64,000 nt of DNA from Flavobacteriales bacterium DA487 (GTDB lineage Bacteria > Bacteroidota > Bacteroidia > Flavobacteriales_D > Sanyastnellaceae): assembly GCA_049334165.1 (NCBI GenBank), contig JBEGHD010000001.1, one strand, 5' to 3'. The notes under the pieces were generated by a model, which ran no database searches, was not told the origin of the DNA, and saw only the letters and a program-made list of their open reading frames with translations. Of this stretch, positions 4,348 to 51,963 are shown piece by piece. Position numbers and translations under genes: made by a program. Positions within the stretch are counted from its first letter, which is position 1; each line of letters starts with the position of its first letter.

Positions 4348-7077
4348 ATGGACAACTACTCTTATCTGAGTAACGCAGACGTCACAGCGATAGACGACCT
4401 CTATCAAAAGTTTAAGGAAAATCCTGAGTCAGTCGATTTTGGCTGGCGCAAGTTTTTTGAAGGGTTTGAGTTTCACAGAACAGAATTTGAAAAAGACGGA
4501 GAGCAGGAACTTCCTGAAGATCTCCACAGGGAGTTTAAGGTAATCAACCTGATCAACGGATACCGCAATCGCGGCCACCTGTTCACCAAAACCAACCCGG
4601 TGCGCGAGAGAAGAAAATACTCTCCCACACTCGACATCGAAAACTTTGGCCTCGAAGAATCCGACCTGGACGAAACGTTTCAGGCTGGTCAGGAAATCGG
4701 AATTGGAAGAGCCACGCTCAAAGAAATTATTGAGCACCTAAAGCACACTTACTGCCAGTCGATTGGTGTGGAGTACATGTACATCCGCGATCCCGAAAGA
4801 CTCAAGTGGATTCAGCACAAGCTCGAGGAAAACAACCTGAAGAAATTTACCAAAGAGGAAAAGCTCGACATCTACAAAAAGTTGAGCCGCACCACGCTTT
4901 TCGAGCAATATCTGCAGCGAAAGTTTGTGGGACAAAAGAGATTTTCCATTGAAGGTGGCGAAGCGTTGATTCCAGCGTTGGACTCGCTTATCGAAAAAGC
5001 ATCTGCCAACGGAGTTGAGGAATTCGTAATGGGAATGGCCCACCGCGGTCGCCTCAACGCTCTGGCTCATATTTTTGGAAAGCCTTACGAAGAACTCTTT
5101 GCAGAATTCGAAGGACGAGAGTACAAAGACGATGTGTTCGATGGCGATGTGAAATACCACCTCGGCTACTCCAACACGGTGAAGTCCGACAAAGGAGCTG
5201 ACGTTCACCTTACCCTCTCCCCCAACCCTTCTCACCTCGAAGCGGTGGATCCGGTTGTGGAAGGTTTGACGAGAGCAAAAATCGACAACTACCTCAAAGA
5301 CGAGAACAAAATTGTTCCGATCCTCATCCACGGTGATGCGGCAATTGCAGCGCAGGGAGTGGTCTACGAAGTGGTGCAAATGGCACAGCTCGATGGCTAC
5401 CGAACCGGTGGAACTATCCACATTGTGGTGAACAACCAGATTGGCTTCACCACCAACTACCTCGATGGACGCTCGAGCACCTACTGCACAGATGTTGGTA
5501 AAACCACACTTTGCCCTGTGTTCCACGTAAATGGTGACGATGTGGAAGCCGTGATCCAAACAGTCAACATGGCGCTTGAGTACCGTCTGAAGTACAACCG
5601 CGATGTGTTTATCGATTTGCTCGGCTACAGAAAATACGGCCACAACGAAGGTGACGAGCCGAAGTTCACTCAGCCGCAGCTTTACAAAGCCATTTCGCAG
5701 CACCCCGACTTGCGAGAGATCTACAAAAATCAACTTATCGAAGAGGGAATTCTCACTGAAGATCAGGCCGATGAAATGAAGTCGGAGTTTGAGAAAATGC
5801 TTGACGACCGATTTGAGAAGAGCAAAAAGATCGAGAACAACTACGTGAAGCACTTCCTCGAGGAAACATGGAAAGATTTGAAAAAAGCTGATGACGATGC
5901 TTTTGACGAATCGCCAGATACAAGCTACGACAAGAAAAAACTCATAGAGCTCGGAAAGAAAATGAGCTCTCTGCCAGAAGGCAAAAAGTGGTTTAGAAAA
6001 GTTGAGAAGCTTTTCAAAGAGCGCACAAAAATGCTCGACAACAACAAGCTCGACTGGGGAATGGGCGAAATGCTCGCCTACGCCACGCTCCTGGAAGAAG
6101 GCTTCCCGGTGCGGATTTCCGGTCAGGATGTGGAGCGTGGGACCTTCTCTCACCGCCACGCTGTGGTGAAAACCGAAGACGAGGAAGAAATCATTCCGCT
6201 CAACCACATTGCCGACAAGCAAGCCGAAATGACGATCTACAACTCACTCCTAAGCGAGTACGGTGTTGTCGGGTTCGACTACGGTTACGCTTTTGCCACT
6301 CCAAACGGACTAACGATTTGGGAAGCGCAGTTTGGTGACTTCAACAACGGAGCGCAAATCATTATCGACCAGTTCCTGAGCTCTGCTGAAGATAAGTGGC
6401 GCACCATGAATGGATTGGTGATGCTGTTGCCTCACGGCTACGAGGGAATGGGCTCTGAGCACTCGAGTGGTCGCATGGAGCGCTACCTCACGCTTTGCGC
6501 TGAAAACAACATGCAGGTGGCCAACGCTACCACTCCGGCAAACTACTTCCACCTTTTGAGAAGGCAGCTACACCGCGAGTTCCGCAAGCCGCTGATCGTT
6601 TTCACTCCAAAGAAATTGCTCCGCTACGCCAAAGCAACTTCGAAAATCGAAGAGATGGCCGAGGGCAGATTCCAGGAAGTGCTGGACGATCCGAATGTGA
6701 AAAAAGGAGACGTGGACACGATTGCTTTCTGCTCTGGGAAAATCTACTACGACATCCTCGAAGAAAGAGAAAAGAAAGAGTCTGGAGAAAACATCGCAGT
6801 GGTGCGCCTCGAGCAGCTTTATCCGTTCCCGGAGAAGCAAATCGACAAGATTCTCGATAAGTACGACAAGGCGAAAAATTACATTTGGATTCAGGAAGAA
6901 CCTGAAAACATGGGCGCCTGGGGCTACATCCTCCGCACTTTCCGCAAGGTCAACCTGGATTTGATTTCCAGAAAAGCCTCCGGAAGTCCGGCAGCTGGAA
7001 GCACCATCGTACACGAGAAGCGCCACCGTGCACTGCTCGACAAGTTGTTCTCCTACGCCAAAGAAAAAGTATCATAA
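4348..7077 (+). CDS. sucA: 2-oxoglutarate dehydrogenase E1 component
   Basis: 909 aa with a SucA-like N-terminus (…DLYQKFKENPESVDFGWRKFFEGFEF…) and TPP-enzyme length and architecture. Confidence 0.95.
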   Translation: MDNYSYLSNADVTAIDDLYQKFKENPESVDFGWRKFFEGFEFHRTEFEKDGEQELPEDLHREFKVINLINGYRNRGHLFTKTNPVRERRKYSPTLDIENFGLEESDLDETFQAGQEIGIGRATLKEIIEHLKHTYCQSIGVEYMYIRDPERLKWIQHKLEENNLKKFTKEEKLDIYKKLSRTTLFEQYLQRKFVGQKRFSIEGGEALIPALDSLIEKASANGVEEFVMGMAHRGRLNALAHIFGKPYEELFAEFEGREYKDDVFDGDVKYHLGYSNTVKSDKGADVHLTLSPNPSHLEAVDPVVEGLTRAKIDNYLKDENKIVPILIHGDAAIAAQGVVYEVVQMAQLDGYRTGGTIHIVVNNQIGFTTNYLDGRSSTYCTDVGKTTLCPVFHVNGDDVEAVIQTVNMALEYRLKYNRDVFIDLLGYRKYGHNEGDEPKFTQPQLYKAISQHPDLREIYKNQLIEEGILTEDQADEMKSEFEKMLDDRFEKSKKIENNYVKHFLEETWKDLKKADDDAFDESPDTSYDKKKLIELGKKMSSLPEGKKWFRKVEKLFKERTKMLDNNKLDWGMGEMLAYATLLEEGFPVRISGQDVERGTFSHRHAVVKTEDEEEIIPLNHIADKQAEMTIYNSLLSEYGVVGFDYGYAFATPNGLTIWEAQFGDFNNGAQIIIDQFLSSAEDKWRTMNGLVMLLPHGYEGMGSEHSSGRMERYLTLCAENNMQVANATTPANYFHLLRRQLHREFRKPLIVFTPKKLLRYAKATSKIEEMAEGRFQEVLDDPNVKKGDVDTIAFCSGKIYYDILEEREKKESGENIAVVRLEQLYPFPEKQIDKILDKYDKAKNYIWIQEEPENMGAWGYILRTFRKVNLDLISRKASGSPAAGSTIVHEKRHRALLDKLFSYAKEKVS

Positions 7078-32777: not shown

Positions 32778-32883
32778 GTCTTTTTTGTTTTGGGTTTCAA
32801 ATAAAAAATCAACGACCACCGACCCGAAAAGATCGACAGCCATTGATTTAACAACAAGAGAATCGTAAGATGTTCAAATTTTT

Positions 32884-32975
32884 GGGCGCCCACCGCTCAA
32901 TCGCGGTGCCGGGCTTTCCGCTATATCTTGCCCTCAGCCGGGCAAGGATGCCGCGTCAATCCCTGGCGCGGGGCG
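32884..32975. other. GC-rich (about 67% GC), stem-rich element of about 92 nt; candidate structured RNA or protein-binding site. Strand unknown
   Basis: Nested complementary segments CGCCC…GGGCG, CGCGGU…GCCGCG, CUUGCCC-UCAGCC-GGGCAAG, and two TCAATC-loop hairpins. GC content is far above the flanking DNA. Confidence 0.3.
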
Positions 32976-32998
32976 TAGTAAAGACACTGCGATTAAGG

Positions 32999-34570
32999 CT
33001 ACTTGAAAGTTACCTTGCCAACTTTCTGCTTATTTCCGTCAAGGGTATACATAAACAGATGACCGCCATCACGAGATGCCTCAGAAAATCCTGGCACCAG
33101 AAGTTGTCCTGTTTCGTCATTGTTACTCAGTAATTCCGAACTCACATTTCCCGATTCATCCACAATTGTCCACGCTGTAAAGTTGGTTTTGAGGGTCGAT
33201 CGACCCATTCCTTTTTGCTCTTCTTCAGAATAGAAAAACTCACCCGCTACATTGTAGAAAAGATGGATCTGTCCATTCTTAAATACAGGGTACGTATAAG
33301 CCTCATGGAAGTCAGGACTCCGGCTCTCGAGCTCTTGCTTTTTATCAACCATAGAAATCCACTGAATCTCACCTTCCGAGCTCGCTGACACCGTGATTAT
33401 GTCCATGGTTTTCATGAAGTATTTAGTGTCTGATTCACTGTCAAAATACTGTTCAGCAACAAATTGGAAACCATTTGTACTTGCATTCAAACCTCTCAAC
33501 TCCATTTCTATTTCTGGTCTATACCTGGATTCCGCACCGAGTAAACCTTTTCGAACCATGCTTTTAGCAATAACACCACTTGCGAACTCGTCCGCACTTG
33601 ACCCTGTAATTCTCATACTGTTCGGGTCAACACTAAAAACAAATGCACCATCAGTCGTAACATCCTCGTCAGACGTGATGTTGTTGCTAAAGATGCCTCC
33701 GACAAGCAGGTTATCTGATGATGCAAAAGCATAATCCGATATCAAAACACGTCTATTCTCTAAATCAAGATTGAGATACTTTTCTGTACCCTCAGAAATT
33801 GAATATTTATAAAGTAGCAGCCGGTCCATTTTTGGCTTTTCTCCGAGAGAACGGCTTTCAAGACCCGGTTCCTTTTTGTTCTCACTGATCAATTGAATAA
33901 AAAGATCCCCTGACCCAGTCGCTCTGGGGACAAAATGAATCGGGTTGTAGAAAGAAGTCCATTTCATAATCGGCTCAATATCATAATCCTCAAGCTCGAG
34001 TACAATTTCTTTTTCATGCTGCAGATTCATTTCCAAATCGAAAAGCTTGTAGTCCACTTGCATGCCATACTTATTGTTTAAAATAGCGATTTTAGACTCA
34101 TCCTCTGAAAAGAGGACTTCAAAGGAACCTCTATAATATTTGTCCGGCAGCCTCTCTTTCGTTGACCAAAATACTTTTGGTGAAGCTGTAACCCTGAAAG
34201 ACTTAATGTCGATTTTTAGAAACGCAAGTTTATCAGACTTTTCAATCTCCGAGTCGTCTTTCAAAAAGACAAATAATTCATCTCCTACAACAAGTAGTTT
34301 GACAAACTCTGCTTCACCTTCAGCAAATTTGCCAGAAACTTCGATCGTACCTGCGAGATTCATATTCCCGTCAAACTTTTCTACTGTAATATCTCTTCCC
34401 GCTTTGACAATGAAAAAATCACTATTTGCTACAATGGTTTGCTCAACCTCCTGCTTGCGTGAGTTCTTAACCTCCTCGCTCCACTGAATTTCTGCTTTCT
34501 CGGTAAGATCCTGGGCTGTGAGTGAAATAGAAATAAAGGCTGACATTAGTCCAATGAATAGTTTGCGCAT
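32999..34570 (-). CDS. hypothetical secreted protein (523 aa)
   Basis: Signal peptide MRKLFIGLMSAFISISLTAQ; no motif recognised. Confidence 0.6.
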   Translation of the reverse strand: MRKLFIGLMSAFISISLTAQDLTEKAEIQWSEEVKNSRKQEVEQTIVANSDFFIVKAGRDITVEKFDGNMNLAGTIEVSGKFAEGEAEFVKLLVVGDELFVFLKDDSEIEKSDKLAFLKIDIKSFRVTASPKVFWSTKERLPDKYYRGSFEVLFSEDESKIAILNNKYGMQVDYKLFDLEMNLQHEKEIVLELEDYDIEPIMKWTSFYNPIHFVPRATGSGDLFIQLISENKKEPGLESRSLGEKPKMDRLLLYKYSISEGTEKYLNLDLENRRVLISDYAFASSDNLLVGGIFSNNITSDEDVTTDGAFVFSVDPNSMRITGSSADEFASGVIAKSMVRKGLLGAESRYRPEIEMELRGLNASTNGFQFVAEQYFDSESDTKYFMKTMDIITVSASSEGEIQWISMVDKKQELESRSPDFHEAYTYPVFKNGQIHLFYNVAGEFFYSEEEQKGMGRSTLKTNFTAWTIVDESGNVSSELLSNNDETGQLLVPGFSEASRDGGHLFMYTLDGNKQKVGKVTFK

Positions 34571-34785
34571 AGCTCAATATTTTGGTTAGAATTCTGCAAG
34601 GAAAGAATATTTGATCAGTTTCTCAACTTTAACTCCTGATAGCGAGAGTTAGGAAAATGATTCAGATCATCAGTTTCTAAAAAAGACATGACAAAGATCA
34701 GTTCTAAACAACACCTCTATGACATTCTCGTGACAAAATGGAGACATTCGGTTTCGATCTTTGTCAACGTTGAAAAAAGAACTGC

Positions 34786-36024
34786 GTGGAAGAGCTAAAA
34801 GTAATTGCATTAACCCATAAAAACCTCAGCCTCGAAGACATTGGCAAGTTTCACCTTGCCGATGACGAACGCGAATCGAGACTGCAGGAAATCAAAGAAA
34901 AATTCGGATTTGACGAATTGATGTTTCTCAGCACGTGCAATCGTGTGGAGATCGTCCTTTCGGTAAACCGTTTTTACTGCATGGGCCAGGCAAGAGAATT
35001 GCTTCAGGAACTCTCCAGCGATGTGCATCCAGATTTTCTTCAGCGCATCGTGCACAAAGTTGAGCTCTTCTCGGGTCGTGCTGCGCTCGAGCACCTCATC
35101 AAAGTAGCTTCATCGCTCGACTCGATGGTGATTGGCGAACGCGAAATCATCACGCAGGTGCGCAAAGCATTTGAAGAAAGCCGTCAGTTCGGAATTTCAG
35201 GCGACCTCTGCAGATTGGTGATCAAGCAAACCATCGCTTCGGCAAAAAGAATTTACACCGACACGCACATCGCTCGCAAACCGGTTTCTGTGGTTTCGCT
35301 GGCCTGGCAACGAATTCTTTCCAAAAAACTCCCGAAAGACTCCAGAGTGCTGTTGATCGGTGCCGGACAGATCATCCGCAACATGAGCCGCTTTTTGCAA
35401 AAAGGGAAGTTCGAAAACGTGACTGTTGCCAACCGCACCCTCCACAGGGCTGAATCAATTGCCGACCTTTTCGAAAACGGCAAAGCCATTTCTCTCGAAG
35501 ATCTTTCGACCTACGAAGGCGGCTTCGATTTGATGATCACCTGCACCGGTTCTGACGAAGCAGTGATCACAGAAAAAATCTACGATCAGCTCACCAAAGG
35601 TGAAGACACACACAAAATCATTTTCGACCTGGCTCTTCCGGCCGATGTGGATCCTACTCTGACCAACATCCACGACATCGACTACACCGGCATGCCGCAG
35701 CTCAAAACTGTAGCCGACAAAAACATCGCTGAGCGATCCAAAGAAGTTGAGCGCTGCGAAAGACTGGTTCAGGAAGGCATGGCCGAGTTCGACAAAATGC
35801 ACGAGCAGCGTCAGATTGAGATCGCTATGCGCGATATCCCCAGAGCGATCAAAGAAATTCGCGAGACAGCCATCGGTGAAGTCTTCGCCAAAGACCTCGA
35901 AGGCCTCGACTCTGAAAGCCGTGAAGTCCTCGAAAAAATCATGGGCTACATGGAAAAGAAATACATCAGCGTTCCCATGAAAATGGCCAAGCAGGTGATT
36001 TTGGAGAGTAAGGGGCGGAGTTGA
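34786..36024 (+). CDS. hemA: glutamyl-tRNA reductase
   Basis: STCNRVE active-site region; NADPH-binding GAGQ motif; GTG start. Confidence 0.9.
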   Translation: MEELKVIALTHKNLSLEDIGKFHLADDERESRLQEIKEKFGFDELMFLSTCNRVEIVLSVNRFYCMGQARELLQELSSDVHPDFLQRIVHKVELFSGRAALEHLIKVASSLDSMVIGEREIITQVRKAFEESRQFGISGDLCRLVIKQTIASAKRIYTDTHIARKPVSVVSLAWQRILSKKLPKDSRVLLIGAGQIIRNMSRFLQKGKFENVTVANRTLHRAESIADLFENGKAISLEDLSTYEGGFDLMITCTGSDEAVITEKIYDQLTKGEDTHKIIFDLALPADVDPTLTNIHDIDYTGMPQLKTVADKNIAERSKEVERCERLVQEGMAEFDKMHEQRQIEIAMRDIPRAIKEIRETAIGEVFAKDLEGLDSESREVLEKIMGYMEKKYISVPMKMAKQVILESKGRS

Positions 36025-36025
36025 T
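35980..36025 (+). repeat. 46-bp direct repeat, copy 1 (the native 3' end of hemA)
   Basis: AAAATGGCCAAGCAGGTGATTTTGGAGAGTAAGGGGCGGAGTTGAT is identical to 36739-36784. Confidence 0.85.
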
Positions 36026-36081
36026 AGTTTTGTCTGATGTTAGGTCAGTCCTTTTTCTTACCTTTAGATAAAATCAGTCGT

Positions 36082-36297
36082 ATGGACTCCATCAAAGTAG
36101 ATATATTAAACCCCACTGCTAAAAAGTTACTAAAGGCTCTGGCGGAATTGAAGCTTATAAGAATTCGTCCAGAGAAATATGACTCTACTGAATTCTCCGC
36201 CTTTCTAGAACAAATCCGATCGAAGTCTCAGGAGCCCTTGTCTCTTGATGAAATCACAAAAGAGGTCGAAGATGTAAGGAAGAAACGCAATGAGTAA
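36082..36297 (+). CDS. putative antitoxin of a PIN-toxin pair (71 aa)
   Basis: Small ORF immediately upstream of, and overlapping by 8 nt, the PIN-domain gene. The start was chosen at MDSIKV. Confidence 0.5.
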   Translation: MDSIKVDILNPTAKKLLKALAELKLIRIRPEKYDSTEFSAFLEQIRSKSQEPLSLDEITKEVEDVRKKRNE

Positions 36298-36700
36298 ATC
36301 CCGGGTCATAGTTGATACCAATCTCTGGGTTTCATTTCTAATCACTAAAAGTCACCAAGTTTTCGAAAGGCGGATCTCTGAGAATAGAATTGCCCTAATA
36401 TTTTCAGAAGAATTGATTCTTGAGTTGGTTGAAGTCCTCAATCGTCCCAAGTTTTCAAGATATTTCTCCAAAGAGGACATTGAAAATTTGCTTTTGATAA
36501 TAGAAAATATCTCTGAGTTGATTATCTGCACATCGCGAACTCGAGTTTGCCGGGACGAAAAGGACAACTTCCTTCTTGATTTGGCTAAAGATGGGCAAGC
36601 CGATTATCTCATTACTGGCGATAACGACTTGCTGGTCTTAAAAAATTTTGACGGCACCCAGATAATCAGGTTTTCCGAATTTGAACAATTGTTTTCCTAA
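36290..36700 (+). CDS. PIN-domain toxin (VapC-like)
   Basis: Acidic PIN residues in VIVDTN…, …DEKDN… and …ITGDNDL… over 136 aa. Confidence 0.75.
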   Translation: MSKSRVIVDTNLWVSFLITKSHQVFERRISENRIALIFSEELILELVEVLNRPKFSRYFSKEDIENLLLIIENISELIICTSRTRVCRDEKDNFLLDLAKDGQADYLITGDNDLLVLKNFDGTQIIRFSEFEQLFS

Positions 36701-36738
36701 TTTGAGACTATCAAAGAAACAAGTTAGCGTCCCTACGA

Positions 36739-36784
36739 AAAATGGCCAAGCAGGTGATTTTGGAGAGTAAGGGGCGGAGTTGAT
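36739..36784 (+). repeat. 46-bp direct repeat, copy 2 (duplicated hemA 3' end downstream of the TA cassette)
   Basis: Identical to 35980-36025. Confidence 0.85.
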
Positions 36785-37029
36785 TCCTGATACCGAGTTC
36801 GAACAGTCACATTTCAATTATTTAGTCAAAACGATTAGCTTGGAGGTCGAAAAACTATTCGATACTTCTGGAACTCTCAATCCTATATCGCAATGGAGAA
36901 CACCTGGAAACATTTTCCAGAAATCTCACTTCGGAATTTATCCGTGAGAAAATCCTGTCCCTCAATTGGAATAATTTTCATGAAGTACTGCTAGTTCGGG
37001 GAGATAATTTCTCCGCAGTTGGCGGAGAC

Positions 37030-37680
37030 TTGAGCAAGGATGGACTTTCCTATCACTGTGAAGTCAATGGCATTATGGAGATTTCAAACCGAAAGCCAAA
37101 ATCTATTGATGACCTGGTCAACATCATGTTATTTCATTTTTCCCAGGGGATTTCTCTTCCCTCAGACAAAGCTTTTTCAAATAACAGATTAGACACCAAT
37201 CGGGGTAAGGTGATAACTCCAGATCTCAATGCCCGAAAGAGAGTCATTAAAAACAAATATTTCGAAGCTGATCGGATCGAAAAGAAGAAACGATTGGTGC
37301 GTCTCATTCTCGCGTCTCTCACTTTTCTGATCGTTCCAACTTTCGTTTATATTTCTTTTAGCGGAAACTTACCGTACTACTTAAACAATACTGTGCAAAC
37401 AAAAGCTGAGGTAGTCAACACCCGCCCATTCCAAATTATTGGGCGTCACAAGATTTATGTCAAATATTTCTACGAAGTGAAAGGTCATGTTTACGAGGGA
37501 ACATTTAAACAAACTAAGTCTTTTCATCATGTTCCTCTATTAACTAAAGACAGCCTGGTTATCGAGTATCTCGAAAACGATCCTTCAACCTCCCGCCCTA
37601 TTTCAGTCCACAGTGTCTGGTCTGAAACTCACCCAAATAAACTCAGGCCTCCATCTTCAATTCCTAAGAAATCAAACTAG
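37030..37680 (+). CDS. hypothetical single-pass membrane protein in an AT-rich stretch
   Basis: 216 aa; one TM helix (LVRLILASLTFLIVPTFVYISF); no recognisable motif. Confidence 0.5.
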   Translation: MSKDGLSYHCEVNGIMEISNRKPKSIDDLVNIMLFHFSQGISLPSDKAFSNNRLDTNRGKVITPDLNARKRVIKNKYFEADRIEKKKRLVRLILASLTFLIVPTFVYISFSGNLPYYLNNTVQTKAEVVNTRPFQIIGRHKIYVKYFYEVKGHVYEGTFKQTKSFHHVPLLTKDSLVIEYLENDPSTSRPISVHSVWSETHPNKLRPPSSIPKKSN

Positions 37681-37742
37681 CTCAAATTTTGTCGCCCAGA
37701 AGGCGTTTTTAAAAGACCTCCATCCCCACCACATTCTTATTT

Positions 37743-39338
37743 TTGCAAGCTATGGCAGAAAAGAAACCGATTATCATTGGCTCGCGCGGAAGCGACCTCG
37801 CTTTGTGGCAAGCTAACTTTGTGAAAGATCGCCTCACCGAGCTGGGTGAAAAAGCAGAAATCAAGATCATCAAAACGCAAGGCGATAAGATTCAGCACCT
37901 TAGTTTTGACAAGATGGAAGGCAAGGGATTTTTCACCAAAGAAATTGAAGCCGAGCTGCTCGATGGTACTATCGATCTGGCAGTGCACTCCCACAAAGAT
38001 CTGGAAACGACCAACCCCGAAGGTCTCACCATCGCTGCCGTGAGTAGCAGAGCCAATCCGGCCGACTTGCTGCTTATCAACCCAGACGCGGTGAAAGACA
38101 AACTGAAATTTCATCTCAAGTCCAACCCAGTGGTGGGAACTTCCTCTGCCAGACGCAAAGCCCAGTTGCTGTTTTTCCGCCCGGATGCGAAGATCAAAGA
38201 CCTTCGCGGGAACGTTCCTACTCGCATTCAAAAACTCAAGGACGGTCAGTATGATGCCATCCTGATTGCAAAAGCCGGAATCGACCGACTGAACATCGAC
38301 CTAAGCGATCTGCACGTTTTTGAGATGGATCCCACAGTTTTCATTCCGGCTCCGGCCCAGGGCGTTTTGGGACTGCAAGTTCGGGAGGGCGATAAAGACC
38401 TCATTGAAACGCTCAAATCGCTTAATGATGAAGAAGTAGCTGAGAGAATTGCCGTAGAAAGAAATGTTCTCAAATTGATGAAAGGCGGCTGCCAAATGCC
38501 ACTTGGTGTGTACTGCGTAAAAACAGATGACGAATACTTTGTTTATTCCGCTCTGGCCGATGCCTGGGATGCTCCCTTGAGGCGCGACTATGTGGAGACC
38601 AACACCCTCGCAGGAGTGGCTGAGGGAATCGCCAAAAGGCTTCAGCTCAAAGAACACAAAAGAACAGTTTTCATCTCTCGCGGTTTGCCCGAAAACTCAG
38701 ACATCAAAAGACTGCTGAGCAATATGGGAGTGAAATTGATCGACACTACGCTGATTCAGTCCGAGGCGCTTTCGTTTAGCTACGACAACGACCCCGACTG
38801 GATTTTCTTCTCTTCGAGAAATGCCGTCCACTACTTTTTCGGTCAGCACAAACCTTCTTCAAAATCGAAAATGGCAGCGCTCGGAAAGGGTACTGCCGAT
38901 GAACTGTCGCGCTACGCTAAAGTCGACTTCGCTGGCTCAGGTGCCGATACCAAAGCCATTGCAGAAAGCTTCAAAGCCAAAGTTGGCAAAGGCACCGTGA
39001 TGTTTCCGCAGTCGAAGCAGAGCTTGCGCTCAATCCAAAGCGTTTTCCCCGAAGAGCAGGTAGAAAATGTGGTCTGCTACGAAACGCTGGCTGACCCCAA
39101 ACCGATTCATGCGGATGTACTTTTCTTCACGAGTCCGAGCAACACCAGCGCCTACCTGATGATGAACGACATCGAACCTCATCAACTAGTGGTGGGGATG
39201 GGTGCTTCCACTTCGAACTTTATGAAAGAGCGAGGCCACACGGTGGTTGCCACTCCGAGAAACTACTCGGACCTGGCCATTTTGGATGCCATCCTTTATG
39301 CGCTGAGCCTCGAGGAACCAGTGAGTGAAGATGCCTGA
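37743..39338 (+). CDS. hemC: bifunctional hydroxymethylbilane synthase / uroporphyrinogen-III synthase (HemC-HemD fusion)
   Basis: N-terminal about 300 aa HemC-like (…IIGSRGSDLALWQAN…MPLGVYC…), C-terminal about 230 aa HemD-like. Confidence 0.85.
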   Translation: MQAMAEKKPIIIGSRGSDLALWQANFVKDRLTELGEKAEIKIIKTQGDKIQHLSFDKMEGKGFFTKEIEAELLDGTIDLAVHSHKDLETTNPEGLTIAAVSSRANPADLLLINPDAVKDKLKFHLKSNPVVGTSSARRKAQLLFFRPDAKIKDLRGNVPTRIQKLKDGQYDAILIAKAGIDRLNIDLSDLHVFEMDPTVFIPAPAQGVLGLQVREGDKDLIETLKSLNDEEVAERIAVERNVLKLMKGGCQMPLGVYCVKTDDEYFVYSALADAWDAPLRRDYVETNTLAGVAEGIAKRLQLKEHKRTVFISRGLPENSDIKRLLSNMGVKLIDTTLIQSEALSFSYDNDPDWIFFSSRNAVHYFFGQHKPSSKSKMAALGKGTADELSRYAKVDFAGSGADTKAIAESFKAKVGKGTVMFPQSKQSLRSIQSVFPEEQVENVVCYETLADPKPIHADVLFFTSPSNTSAYLMMNDIEPHQLVVGMGASTSNFMKERGHTVVATPRNYSDLAILDAILYALSLEEPVSEDA

Positions 39339-50752: not shown

Positions 50753-51856
50753 TCAACACAGTTCATAAACTTTGCCCGGCAGCGACCTCACAAGTCCATT
50801 GAATTCCATGTTTAGCAGTAGCGAACTCGTCTTGCTCATCGGAATTCCGCTTTCCACACTCAGCTCATCGATGGCCGACTTGCCCGACTGCAAAGCTTCA
50901 ACAATTCTCTCTTCCTCTTCTGTAAGATCGATGAACAGCTTTTGCTGATTTGACGATGGAGTTACACTTTCTCTGTTCCACCCCATCACGCGCATCACAT
51001 CGTCTGCAGATTGCACCAGCGAAGCTTTTTGTTCCTGAATGAGTCGATTGCACCCGATGGAGTAAGTGTCGCCCACTCTCCCTGGCAACGCCATCACATC
51101 GCGGCTGTAGGAGAAAGCAAGATTGGCTGTGATTAACGAACCTCCTTTGTGACCGGACTCCACTACCAAAACACCATCGGCCATGCCGGCAACTATTCTA
51201 TTTCTCTTTGGGAAATTCTGAGCATCGGGCTTTGTTCCTTTTCTAAACTCGCTGATCACACCTCCGTTTTTCATCATTTTTTCTGCCGTGCTCCTGTGCA
51301 GCGAAGGATAAAAACGATCGAGGCCATGACCAAGGCAGCCAATAGTTGGAAGATCATTTTTCAATGCGGACTTGTGCGCACAGATGTCGATCCCGTAAGC
51401 CATTCCGCTCACAATAGTAACGCCTGTGTCGGATAGATCACCAATTATTTTTTCGCACTCGTCAAGCCCATAAGGCGTGGCCCTACGTGTGCCAACGACT
51501 GAAAGCATCCGACCCGGATTCATCTTCAAATTGCCCTTTCCGTAGAGAACCAGCGGACTGTCCTGGCAATATTTTAGGCGATTTGGATACTCTTTGTCCA
51601 GGTAAAAGTAGATCGAGACTCCATTTTCTTCAGCAAAGTCAACCTCTTTCTGAGCTTCTTCCAGAAGGTCGTCATTAAATTCATCTTTGATCAGCTTGGC
51701 ACGAACTCCCTCGATTCCTTTAAATCCACTTTTCGAAGCTTCAAATACTTCTTTCACACCTCCGCAGTGCGAAACCAGTTTTCGCGCATTGATAGGACCG
51801 AGATTTTTGACAAGAGTGAGTGCTACTTTGTAGACAACATCTTCTGAATAGTTCAT
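50753..51856 (-). CDS. dprA: DNA-processing protein A
   Basis: DprA Rossmann-like core (…MAYGIDICAHKSAL…GCLGHGLDRFYP…). The start was chosen at MNYSEDV. Confidence 0.85.
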   Translation of the reverse strand: MNYSEDVVYKVALTLVKNLGPINARKLVSHCGGVKEVFEASKSGFKGIEGVRAKLIKDEFNDDLLEEAQKEVDFAEENGVSIYFYLDKEYPNRLKYCQDSPLVLYGKGNLKMNPGRMLSVVGTRRATPYGLDECEKIIGDLSDTGVTIVSGMAYGIDICAHKSALKNDLPTIGCLGHGLDRFYPSLHRSTAEKMMKNGGVISEFRKGTKPDAQNFPKRNRIVAGMADGVLVVESGHKGGSLITANLAFSYSRDVMALPGRVGDTYSIGCNRLIQEQKASLVQSADDVMRVMGWNRESVTPSSNQQKLFIDLTEEEERIVEALQSGKSAIDELSVESGIPMSKTSSLLLNMEFNGLVRSLPGKVYELC

Positions 51857-51963
51857 TTTCAAGTTGTTTGGCAATCTCAAAAATAGATAAAACGGCCATT
51901 GAACCAAAGCCATTCGGCAAACTGCTATTTTAGTATCATTGCATGTCTCCCGACCGAAGCGTT

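Follow-up and report, generated by a model that had tools for sequence, protein, structure and literature searches.

In the window (the whole 64-kb stretch of DNA analysed here) we find a 713-nt cassette encoding a candidate toxin-antitoxin (TA) pair, inserted precisely at the hemA stop codon and bracketed by a perfect direct repeat of the hemA 3' end; the cassette is missing from a sister lineage with a single copy of this gene end. The reading we favour, at a probability of roughly 0.5, is that the cassette arrived long ago by insertion with long target duplication and without a dedicated recombinase in cis, the core of the duplication having later been homogenised and the insert stabilised by its TA pair. 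Since two filled lineages can be set beside an empty site, the locus illustrates cleanly how, in nature, a two-gene addiction module with no recombinase of its own can settle behind an essential biosynthetic gene that remains undamaged. The features of the region are as follows.

34786..36024, + strand: hemA, glutamyl-tRNA reductase, 412 aa (Pfam GlutR_N 6.5e-34, Shikimate_DH 7.5e-25, GlutR_dimer 3.4e-5)
35980..36025, + strand: DR1, left repeat copy; comprises the final 42 coding nt of hemA, its TGA stop and the base that follows
36000..36032, + strand: Bacteroidetes-type promoter-like motif TTTG-N21-TAGTTTTG, from a pattern search; spans the junction of DR1 and cassette
36026..36738, + strand: cassette proper, 713 nt; absent from related contigs L019-L023, 85% identical to positions 1-713 of contig L017
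36082..36297, + strand: antitoxin candidate, 71 aa; ORF with ATG at 36082 and a VapB-like C-terminus
36290..36700, + strand: PIN-domain toxin candidate (PIN_3/TIGR00305), 136 aa (PF13470 1e-19; TIGR00305 7.1e-32)
36713..36738, + strand: decayed hemA-like stretch directly 5' of DR2, from local alignment to hemA
36739..36784, + strand: DR2, right repeat copy; non-coding pseudo-3'-end of hemA
36785..36867, + strand: original spacer downstream of hemA; host sequence outside the insert, aligning with L019 right after its hemA stop
36868..37680, + strand: gene for a conserved hypothetical membrane protein, 270 aa (tblastn with the 270-aa protein of L019)
37743..39338, + strand: fused hemC-hemD (hemCD), 531 aa (Porphobil_deam 8.4e-72, HEM4 5.4e-21)

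Exactly two copies of the 46-mer AAAATGGCCAAGCAGGTGATTTTGGAGAGTAAGGGGCGGAGTTGAT are present in the window (35980-36025 and 36739-36784). They are 100% identical and 713 nt apart, as the initial annotation had reported, and a match of this kind was found in 0/100 shuffled sequences. The left copy spans the TGA stop of hemA (36022-36024). In a local alignment the copies can be paired over 35955-36025 and 36713-36784, such that similarity extends about 25 nt further 5' (35955-35979 versus 36713-36738) at ~64% identity with a 1-nt indel; the perfect 46-nt part of the repeat stands as first described, while its limitation to 46 nt does not. The additional stretch translates as KKQVSVPTK, with KKYISVPMK as its hemA counterpart, and is the leftover of a formerly longer duplication; the right repeat as a whole is a decayed pseudo-end of hemA.

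Comparison with relatives demonstrates an insertion polymorphism at this point. In five related metagenomic contigs (L019-L023) the hemA end occurs only once and the cassette is missing, so that the empty-site comparison suggested in the initial annotation turns out positive; relatives with a duplicated 46-mer and no inserted genes, named there as contrary evidence, are not what these five contigs represent. They belong to a sister lineage whose hemA (P0121 in L019) is 94% identical to that of the window in amino acids and 86.6% in nucleotides, with an identical C-terminus, MAKQVILESKGRS followed by the stop, and with 41/46 aligned positions of DR1 matching the single copy of L019. Alignment of the window to the empty-site loci stops at 36025 and restarts at 36726, and both flanks of the cassette are colinear with L019. 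The GTDB species genomes that we compared are distant relatives only, with hemA identities of at most 48%; in these more distant Flavobacteriales hemCD directly abuts hemA, which makes absence of the cassette the ancestral state.

A third lineage, represented by the 4.5-kb contig L017, carries the same cassette (85% nt identity) at the same place behind hemA, with a repeat of its own. This contig starts inside the repeat, with the host sequence known from 44 + 27 nt only, and holds several more small gene pairs in the gap between hemA and hemCD. Identity between the cassettes, at ~85%, includes the 5' UTR, but the segments that link the PIN stop to the repeat core (36701-36738 in the window, 716-755 in L017) do not align. 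The cassette dS between the window and L017 is 0.73 and the hemA dS between lineages is 0.79, values close enough that the cassette looks old rather than recently mobile. Homology searches returned no further copies or intermediates, leaving two known occurrences of the cassette, both at hemA.

The insert is compositionally foreign to its surroundings, as judged from base and tetranucleotide usage. Its GC content of 38.6%, compared with 49.6% for hemA and 46.4% for the window, ranks among the lowest 0.6% for windows of 713 nt, its tetranucleotide distance among the top 0.3%, an atypicality for which the initial annotation had proposed to look. Together with one repeat copy it forms a 759-nt insertion unit (~0.76 kb), and it carries the two TA genes only. 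No recombinase genes or sites lie nearby: profile searches of the cassette, the L017 contig and the scanned window ORFs find neither integrase nor transposase, and the insert lacks terminal inverted repeats. An insertion sequence, transposon or MITE was rejected on these grounds, and because the duplication is at least 46 nt rather than of a short, fixed length. Rfam families give no match anywhere in the window at gathering thresholds, PADLOC finds no defence system, and a search of solved structures yields spurious lectin matches only.

The two genes between the repeats, a 71-aa ORF and an overlapping PIN-domain gene, are arranged as the initial annotation had them, in the same orientation with an 8-nt overlap (ATGAGTAA), and the PIN protein scores 110 bits against the TIGR00305 cutoff of 29, with PF13470 likewise above cutoff. 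In a homology search it matches P0001, an NCBI-annotated protein of Halocola ammonii, at 100% identity, which identifies this species as the source of the window; look-ups of the exact hemA and PIN protein sequences gave no record. Its acidic residues D9, E45, D89, D92, D111 and D113 are invariant in an alignment of 28 sequences that includes it. PIN toxins in known members are usually RNases. The antitoxin candidate gives no Pfam match and a weak C-terminal match to VapB15 (NCBIfam; E=5e-5, 23 bits, cutoff 80). At most of the repeat-flanked metagenomic loci that we examined, the PIN homologue is preceded by a conserved partner gene with the consensus M..I.VDILNPKAKKLL.DLA.L.LI...SL.EIT.EVE.VR, and L017 has a homologous partner as well. 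The pair resembles type II VapBC-like modules with a TIGR00305/PF13470 toxin in its conserved acidic residues, in the small, overlapping upstream partner with its weakly VapB-like C-terminus, and in forming an isolated two-gene insert among housekeeping genes, as such modules often do; it differs in that its antitoxin candidate exceeds the threshold of no curated family. Both genes are, judging from their sequences, intact and under purifying selection, with an omega of 0.13 for the toxin relative to the L017 copy, and they would be expected to act as toxin and antitoxin.

The region beyond the second repeat has a separate history. The initial annotation had described some 950 bp of AT-rich DNA after DR2, with one hypothetical membrane-protein gene; this region is not part of the cassette. 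It contains a conserved gene that is also found in the empty-site lineage, and the product is 270 aa long (36868-37680) rather than 216 aa. The 270-aa protein of L019 aligns with the window by tblastn in one frame over all 270 residues at 67% identity, and the gene is present in L019-L021 and L023, relatives without the cassette. It is an older occupant of the gap between hemA and hemCD, independent of the TA insertion. Its product matches nothing in Pfam, NCBIfam or PADLOC. The practical effect of the insertion on the genome is small, with hemA intact and hemCD already split off by this older gene.

The way in which the repeats vary between lineages bears on the mechanism. The repeat cores of the window and L017 lineages differ at 7/34 positions (20%), and the pair within L017 is 33/34 identical. 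At the lineage-variable positions the right copy matches the hemA of its own genome in 7/7 cases in the window and 6/7 in L017, 13/14 in total, a lineage-specific co-variation shown by the alignments. The part of the right repeat that tracks the resident hemA comprises its last 34-46 nt; further 5', the L017 counterpart of 36713-36738 is likewise only faintly hemA-like, and unlike the stretch in the window. Co-variation of the cores with the host's own hemA points to homology-dependent exchange rather than a recombinase acting at a fixed site.

We infer a Campbell-type origin followed by gene conversion. A circularised DNA fragment in which the TA operon adjoined a 3' fragment of hemA may have served as donor, entering the chromosome of the Halocola lineage at the hemA stop codon by a single-crossover, RecA-dependent insertion-duplication, with no dedicated recombinase in cis. 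Repeats that are long and vary in length follow automatically from an event of this kind, which also leaves the target gene intact, as it is here. The 759-bp unit consists of the 713-bp cassette plus the duplicated target copy, the duplicated hemA end having measured at least 46 nt and probably at least 71 nt originally; the left copy completes an intact hemA, and the right, non-coding copy joins the old downstream spacer. A single crossover with a diverged donor cannot by itself yield a perfect core next to a diverged flank, so that an extra step is needed, which could be gene conversion or a donor identical to the target at the outset. Since the insertion, which may date to about the split of the two Halocola-like lineages, the 5' part of the right copy would have decayed neutrally, while gene conversion or unequal exchange between the repeats would have held the 3' 34-46 nt identical to the functional hemA end, over a homogenised core that shrinks with time. 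The same repeats would permit precise loss of the cassette, which could account for the empty-site lineage if it was ever a carrier, and the TA pair, as an addiction or stabilisation module, would counter-select such loss. The locus thereby gives a rare time-resolved view of a target duplicate that decays from one side, with a 34-46-nt core that stays identical to each lineage's own gene end.

Site-specific integration by a recombinase supplied in trans, with the cassette as a CIME-like remnant or satellite between attL and attR, strikes us as unlikely. The 46-nt repeat would then be an att core in the hemA 3' end, with the integrase encoded elsewhere or lost. This is close to the original proposal for the locus, of which the genuine insertion, the intact hemA and the flanking duplication are borne out and site-specific insertion with a lost integrase is less well supported. 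Bracketing by direct repeats at a housekeeping gene's 3' end, with the gene rebuilt, is typical of integrative elements, and the two known copies of the cassette share one site. CIMEs, which are cis-mobilisable, att-flanked and integrase-less remnants known for instance from the fda 3' end in Streptococcus thermophilus, are likewise short elements without recombination genes whose direct repeats duplicate the 3' end of a housekeeping gene. The core also contains a dyad, AAAATGGCC-N5-GGTGATTTT, with a predicted hairpin, within which the inter-repeat identity of L017 begins, but this is a weak dyad, and in the empty-site lineage it is degraded. The element-side arm beside the core, where an attP arm would be expected, is unconserved between the two cassettes, and the cores match their own host at 13 of the 14 variable positions, which is not expected from a recombinase with a fixed crossover and sets the hemA islet apart from CIMEs in both respects. 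The absence of an integrase from the cassette, the L017 contig and the scanned window ORFs also counts against this model, and an ICE or integrase that uses hemA as its att site is not known to us. A phage or ICE with a hemA-like attP was considered and rejected, as none of the viral contigs searched contains the hemA core motif or a close PIN relative.

We give rather less credence to the idea that the window and L017 lineages acquired their cassettes independently and more recently at a shared hemA site, each insertion duplicating the host sequence afresh. Such a model invokes an actively mobile cassette that homes to hemA through a hemA-like segment which it carries, and it would explain why the cores are near-perfect within a genome and 20% different between genomes, and why each cassette has an older, diverged hemA-like stretch beside its core. 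It requires, however, that the core of the donor equal that of the recipient. The agreement of cassette and host-gene dS (0.73 and 0.79) fits co-divergence instead, and the failure of homology searches to return more copies or intermediates also speaks against an active element.

An integron-type gene cassette, with an attC after the PIN stop and the gap as a small array lacking an integrase (CALIN), is very improbable for the window, even though it is suggested by the wider family. Behind homologous TA cassettes at other loci lie imperfect, attC-like palindromes that have AAC...GTT boundaries and recur between adjacent cassettes, as in L054 (z -3.5 to -3.8), L028 and the Soonwooa buanensis isolate locus L106 (four repeat copies), and L017 has its several other small gene pairs in the same gap. 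As a compact, promoter-proximal two-gene unit with close family members in repeat-separated, palindrome-bearing arrays, the hemA cassette is indeed similar to integron cassettes and CALINs, from which it differs in that its repeat is host coding sequence and in lacking a significant hairpin or an integron integrase. Folding of the region after the PIN stop is not significant in the window (top strand z = -1.57, bottom strand z = +0.49, survey z = -0.73), and z is positive for the equivalent region of L017. A scan for AAC...GTT boundaries and inner stems finds no candidate in the window or L017, in a test that did not separate loci from shuffles. The 46 nt belong to the hemA coding sequence itself and also occur in the empty site; no intI-like gene or tyrosine recombinase domain occurs among the scanned ORFs, and the genes around the cassette are hemA, the one for the 270-aa protein, and hemCD. 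An attC was accordingly rejected for the window, the region being unstructured and its 3' part hemA coding sequence. That the structure is an artefact of a draft assembly in which a repeat was mis-joined or collapsed is scarcely credible: the second example does begin inside the repeat, but it is an independent assembly from another sample with the same order of hemA end, cassette and second repeat, a sequencing read is longer than the 46-nt repeat, and both flanks are colinear with L019.

The closest precedent for insertion with long target duplication comes from restriction-modification gene complexes (Furuta, Abe & Kobayashi 2010, PMC2853133; see also Nobusato et al. 2000 on such insertions, as cited in PMC2853133). 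In those cases direct repeats of more than 30 bp occur as a single copy in a related insert-free genome and can extend into the upstream gene's 3' end, the two H. influenzae cases measuring 46 bp (PMC2853133); the criteria of that study also include an insert of less than 20 kb without other mobile-element genes (PMC2853133). The hemA locus shows the insert polymorphism, repeats longer than 30 bp, the small size and the lack of mobile genes, whereas its cargo is a TA pair rather than a restriction-modification system, and so the resemblance is one of architecture and not of cargo. Shared features include a small addiction-type unit, absence of mobility genes and an atypical GC content. DNA double-strand breakage, suggested as a common property of restriction-modification systems (PMC2853133), is not an obvious property of PIN toxins, and the hemA repeat core differs further in showing evidence of long concerted evolution. 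Our literature search found no paper describing insertion with long target duplication for TA modules; an architecture documented so far for restriction-modification systems is here extended to a TA pair. The genomic islet is real, lacks a recombinase and is otherwise rather ordinary.

Across the PIN_3 family, tight flanking direct repeats accompany 12/70 members, as opposed to 1/338 displaced controls. One homologous TA cassette (L087) is flanked by a duplication of 231 nt from the 3' end of the neighbouring gene, and another (L099) by a duplicated 322 nt that includes the 5' end of a gene. The enrichment is heterogeneous: several cases are attC-like palindromic repeats and not target duplications, and for this reason we rejected the view that all flanking repeats in the family are target duplications. 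That type II TA cassettes spread as autonomous, recombinase-less units by long-target-duplication insertion, as a general mode of addiction-module mobility, is a tentative and on balance doubtful proposal, for which the Halocola hemA islet and the PIN_3 cassettes at L087 and L099 would be examples, the repeats of the hemA islet remaining recombinationally active over a long time; if general, it would help to explain TA modules scattered between housekeeping genes. More speculatively, the same TA family may shift in Bacteroidota between duplications of host-gene ends and attC-bearing arrays.

Scans for sigma-70-type promoters and terminators give about as many sites as in shuffled sequence. The Bacteroidetes-type promoter-like pattern has 3 matches in the window versus 1.4 expected, and the match at 36000..36032, unconserved in L017, is a weak candidate for a hybrid promoter from which the TA operon could possibly be transcribed.

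The window contains two, and only two, copies of the 46-nt sequence AAAATGGCCAAGCAGGTGATTTTGGAGAGTAAGGGGCGGAGTTGAT, one at 35980-36025 and the other at 36739-36784; these direct copies are perfect and lie 713 nt apart, and none of 100 shuffles gave a match. Weaker similarity (~64% identity, one single-base indel) extends for another ~25 nt on the 5' side of the two copies, and in this diverged stretch the right copy reads KKQVSVPTK against KKYISVPMK in hemA. The initial annotation correctly gave a perfect 46-bp repeat and missed this extension; its description of the locus is accurate, with the repeat, the hemA end, the toxin-antitoxin (TA) genes and hemC-hemD all confirmed.

Features of the hemA-hemCD interval (window positions)
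34786-36024, hemA, glutamyl-tRNA reductase, 412 aa; TGA stop at 36022-36024; the left repeat copy is its 3' end
36082-36297, 71-aa ORF, candidate antitoxin, between the repeat copies
36290-36700, PIN gene, candidate toxin, 136 aa; PF13470, E=1e-19; TIGR00305, 110 bits
37743-39338, fused hemC-hemD, downstream of the repeat-bracketed region

The 71-aa ORF and the PIN gene overlap by 8 nt, and we infer putative antitoxin and toxin activities from domain content, conserved catalytic residues, this overlap and purifying selection.

The PIN protein is 100% identical to an NCBI-annotated protein of Halocola ammonii (Flavobacteriales). Species-representative genomes contain only distant relatives (hemA identity ≤48%), and hemA directly abuts hemCD in the alignment at 11 of the 16 loci recovered from them. 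A hemA protein 94% identical to that of the window is encoded on eight JGI metagenome contigs, of which five, from a sister lineage, were retrieved (L019-L023); these carry hemA, a 270-aa hypothetical gene, hemCD, a methylpurine glycosylase gene and an HTH/S24 repressor gene, which is the gene order of the window minus the TA pair. The DNA alignment to these contigs stops at 36025 and restarts at 36726, with a single hemA end in the sister lineage, so that the comparison proposed for hemA-hemC loci of relatives is positive and yields a clean empty site. Since the distant relatives lack the cassette too, insertion is the derived state. The insert is foreign by composition, with a GC content of 38.6% (lowest 0.6% of 713-nt windows) and a tetranucleotide distance in the top 0.3%.

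The insertion unit measures 759 bp and is thus smaller than first proposed; it spans 36026-36784 or, counted with the left repeat copy instead, 35980-36738. The ~950-bp AT-rich region 3' of the second repeat, originally included in the range given for the cassette, aligns throughout with the empty-site lineage and holds the conserved 270-aa gene, the product of which is 67% identical over its full length between the two, with the first 32 residues identical. This gene therefore lies outside the TA cassette and occupied the hemA-hemCD gap before it. Other Flavobacteriales, in which hemA and hemCD are adjacent, lack the gene, so that its own presence reflects an earlier insertion at this place. 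The 270-aa gene (36868-37680) lacks a canonical start codon in the window; the CTG at 36868 is replaced by TTG in the sister lineage and by ATA in L017, a contig of a third lineage. A listed 216-aa ORF (TTG at 37030) is probably a truncated reading of this gene, because the first 32 residues of the 270-aa form are identical in the window and L019.

The closest PIN homologue (83% aa identity) is found on the Logan contig L017 (SRR29699975), which opens within a hemA 3' end. Next come the same antitoxin and toxin genes, 85% identical in nt sequence to those of the window, and a second copy of the contig's own hemA end that matches the first at 33/34 nt. Small genes fill a further 3.6 kb, and the last 27 nt of the contig exactly match the beginning of the 270-aa gene in the window; L017 therefore represents the same locus in a third Halocola-like lineage. 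The window and L017 lineages differ at seven positions of the 34-nt core, and at these positions the right repeat agrees with its own hemA in 7/7 cases in the window and 6/7 in L017. Between the PIN stop and the core, the two cassettes cannot be aligned, and each shows only a faint likeness to hemA there; elsewhere they are ~85% identical, non-coding leader included. The two PIN genes give a dS of 0.73 (omega 0.13), close to the hemA dS of 0.79 between the window and the empty-site lineage. The hemA-to-270-aa-gene gap is a hot spot gathering cargo: in L017 (790-4489) it holds a 67-aa ORF, a 147/104-aa pair, a trypsin-like protease, a 108/121-aa pair and a DUF2442 gene, and a second repeat pair (2174-2220 and 4423-4469, 87% identical) duplicates the 3' end of the DUF2442 gene plus its junction with the 270-aa gene.

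We surveyed the TA family in 80 fetched metagenomic loci with PIN homologues at 46-55% aa identity, scoring a tight repeat where one copy lies just upstream of the antitoxin and the other starts ≤90 nt past the PIN stop. Tight flanking direct repeats are present in 12/70 evaluable cassettes versus 1/338 displaced control positions in the same loci, and their sequences differ from locus to locus and are of at least two kinds. Repeats of the first kind, which often follow homologues of the TA pair, are attC-like imperfect palindromes with AAC...GTT at their ends, and they reappear between adjacent small cassettes.

attC-like repeats at other TA loci
L054, 794-945, z of -3.5 to -3.8; R'' CACCACAAC pairs with GTTGTGGTG at the cassette start
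L028, 4405-4605, AAC...GTT-bounded imperfect palindrome
L106, 2850-5509, Soonwooa buanensis isolate; four copies of a repeat ending CCGTTA
L095, 889-976, AAC...GTT-bounded imperfect palindrome

Judged from these motifs, the palindrome-bearing loci look like integron-type cassette arrays in Bacteroidota-like genomes. The window's own post-PIN region does not resemble an attC: neither strand has significant structure there and the 3' 46 nt are hemA coding sequence. Repeats of the second kind are duplicated ends of neighbouring genes: in L087 the cassette is followed by a second copy of 231 nt from the 3' end of a 194-aa gene, arranged as in the window, and in L099 it is preceded by a copy of 322 nt that include the 5' end of the 230-aa gene downstream. 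Several isolate genomes have the TA pair between housekeeping genes with repeats absent.

The anatomy of the window insert is that of an "insertion with long target duplication", known for restriction-modification (RM) gene complexes from genome comparisons, in which an addiction-type unit without mobility genes is flanked by repeats of >30 bp that are single-copy in the empty genome and sometimes overlap the upstream gene at its 3' end; the repeats are 46 bp long in two H. influenzae cases, and the mechanism was left open (PMC2853133). Our literature search found no report of such insertions for TA modules. We infer a Campbell-type insertion-duplication, in which a circularised fragment, with the TA operon adjoining a 3' fragment of hemA, would recombine once with the resident hemA end to give intact hemA, the cassette and a truncated hemA end, with the fragment boundary setting the repeat length. 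The same scheme would yield the arrangements in L087 (3' end) and L099 (5' end). The repeats allow precise deletion, which the TA pair would counter-select. The insertion appears to be an old event, as suggested by a cassette dS similar to that of the host, by a right repeat whose 5' part is about one-third diverged from hemA, as under neutral decay, and by the independence of this 5' decay in the two lineages; recent mobility of the element is unlikely. The 3' cores, perfect and specific to each lineage, call for concerted evolution, by gene conversion or unequal exchange between the repeats, or alternatively for two independent insertions in the window and L017 lineages.

Site-specific insertion by an integrase since lost, as initially proposed, ranks second to insertion-duplication. 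The insertion and its att-like duplication are real, but the integrase is unsupported: a recombinase with a fixed crossover would not make the repeat cores follow the host's own hemA, and the two cassettes share no conserved sequence in the supposed arm region. The cassette encodes the two TA genes only and has no terminal inverted repeats; 19 of 20 further window ORFs in a Pfam scan are housekeeping-type or otherwise unrelated to mobility, with no recombinase or transposase among the 20 (two without a Pfam match), and the 30-44 kb block is colinear with L019. No recombinase was found on L017, no hemA core or close PIN relative on viral contigs, and no Rfam match in the window. The locus adds a case with a different cargo, a TA pair, to a type of event already known; its value lies chiefly in how well it is resolved and in the lead it gives towards surveying TA loci systematically.

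Within the repeat core lies a weak dyad, AAAATGGCC-AAGCA-GGTGATTTT (35980-36002 and 36739-36761), with a small predicted hairpin, and identity between the two L017 copies starts inside it; this could be a recombinase core-type site or coincidence. A Bacteroidetes promoter consensus match, TTTG-N21-TAGTTTTG (36000-36032), arises across the repeat/cassette junction, with its -33 box in the hemA end and its -7 box formed by the last repeat base and the first cassette bases. The antitoxin ATG follows ~50 nt downstream. The 64 kb contain only three such matches, and this one has no conserved counterpart in L017. A DprA (DNA processing protein A) gene at 50753-51913 would fit the uptake of foreign DNA and its loading with RecA, but carries no information specific to the hemA insertion.

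A second lineage-specific insertion of ~1.7 kb (32977-34685) lies on the other side of hemA and is missing in L019-L022, which have ~116 bp in its place; no flanking direct repeat was found. It contains the following ORF.

32999-34570, minus strand, 523-aa ORF, GC 40.8%; no Pfam, NCBIfam or PADLOC match

The insertion is bordered by a GC-rich repeated element of ~97 nt, TTTTGGGCGCCCACCGCTCAATCGCGGTGCCGGGC...GGCGCGGG (32880-32976). The window has this one copy; the sister lineage has two within 21 kb, 95-98% identical to it (L019 9690-9785 and 178-275; also L021 7-103). The element, whose sequence suggests secondary structure, has no Rfam match and is possibly of REP/MITE type or a small RNA.
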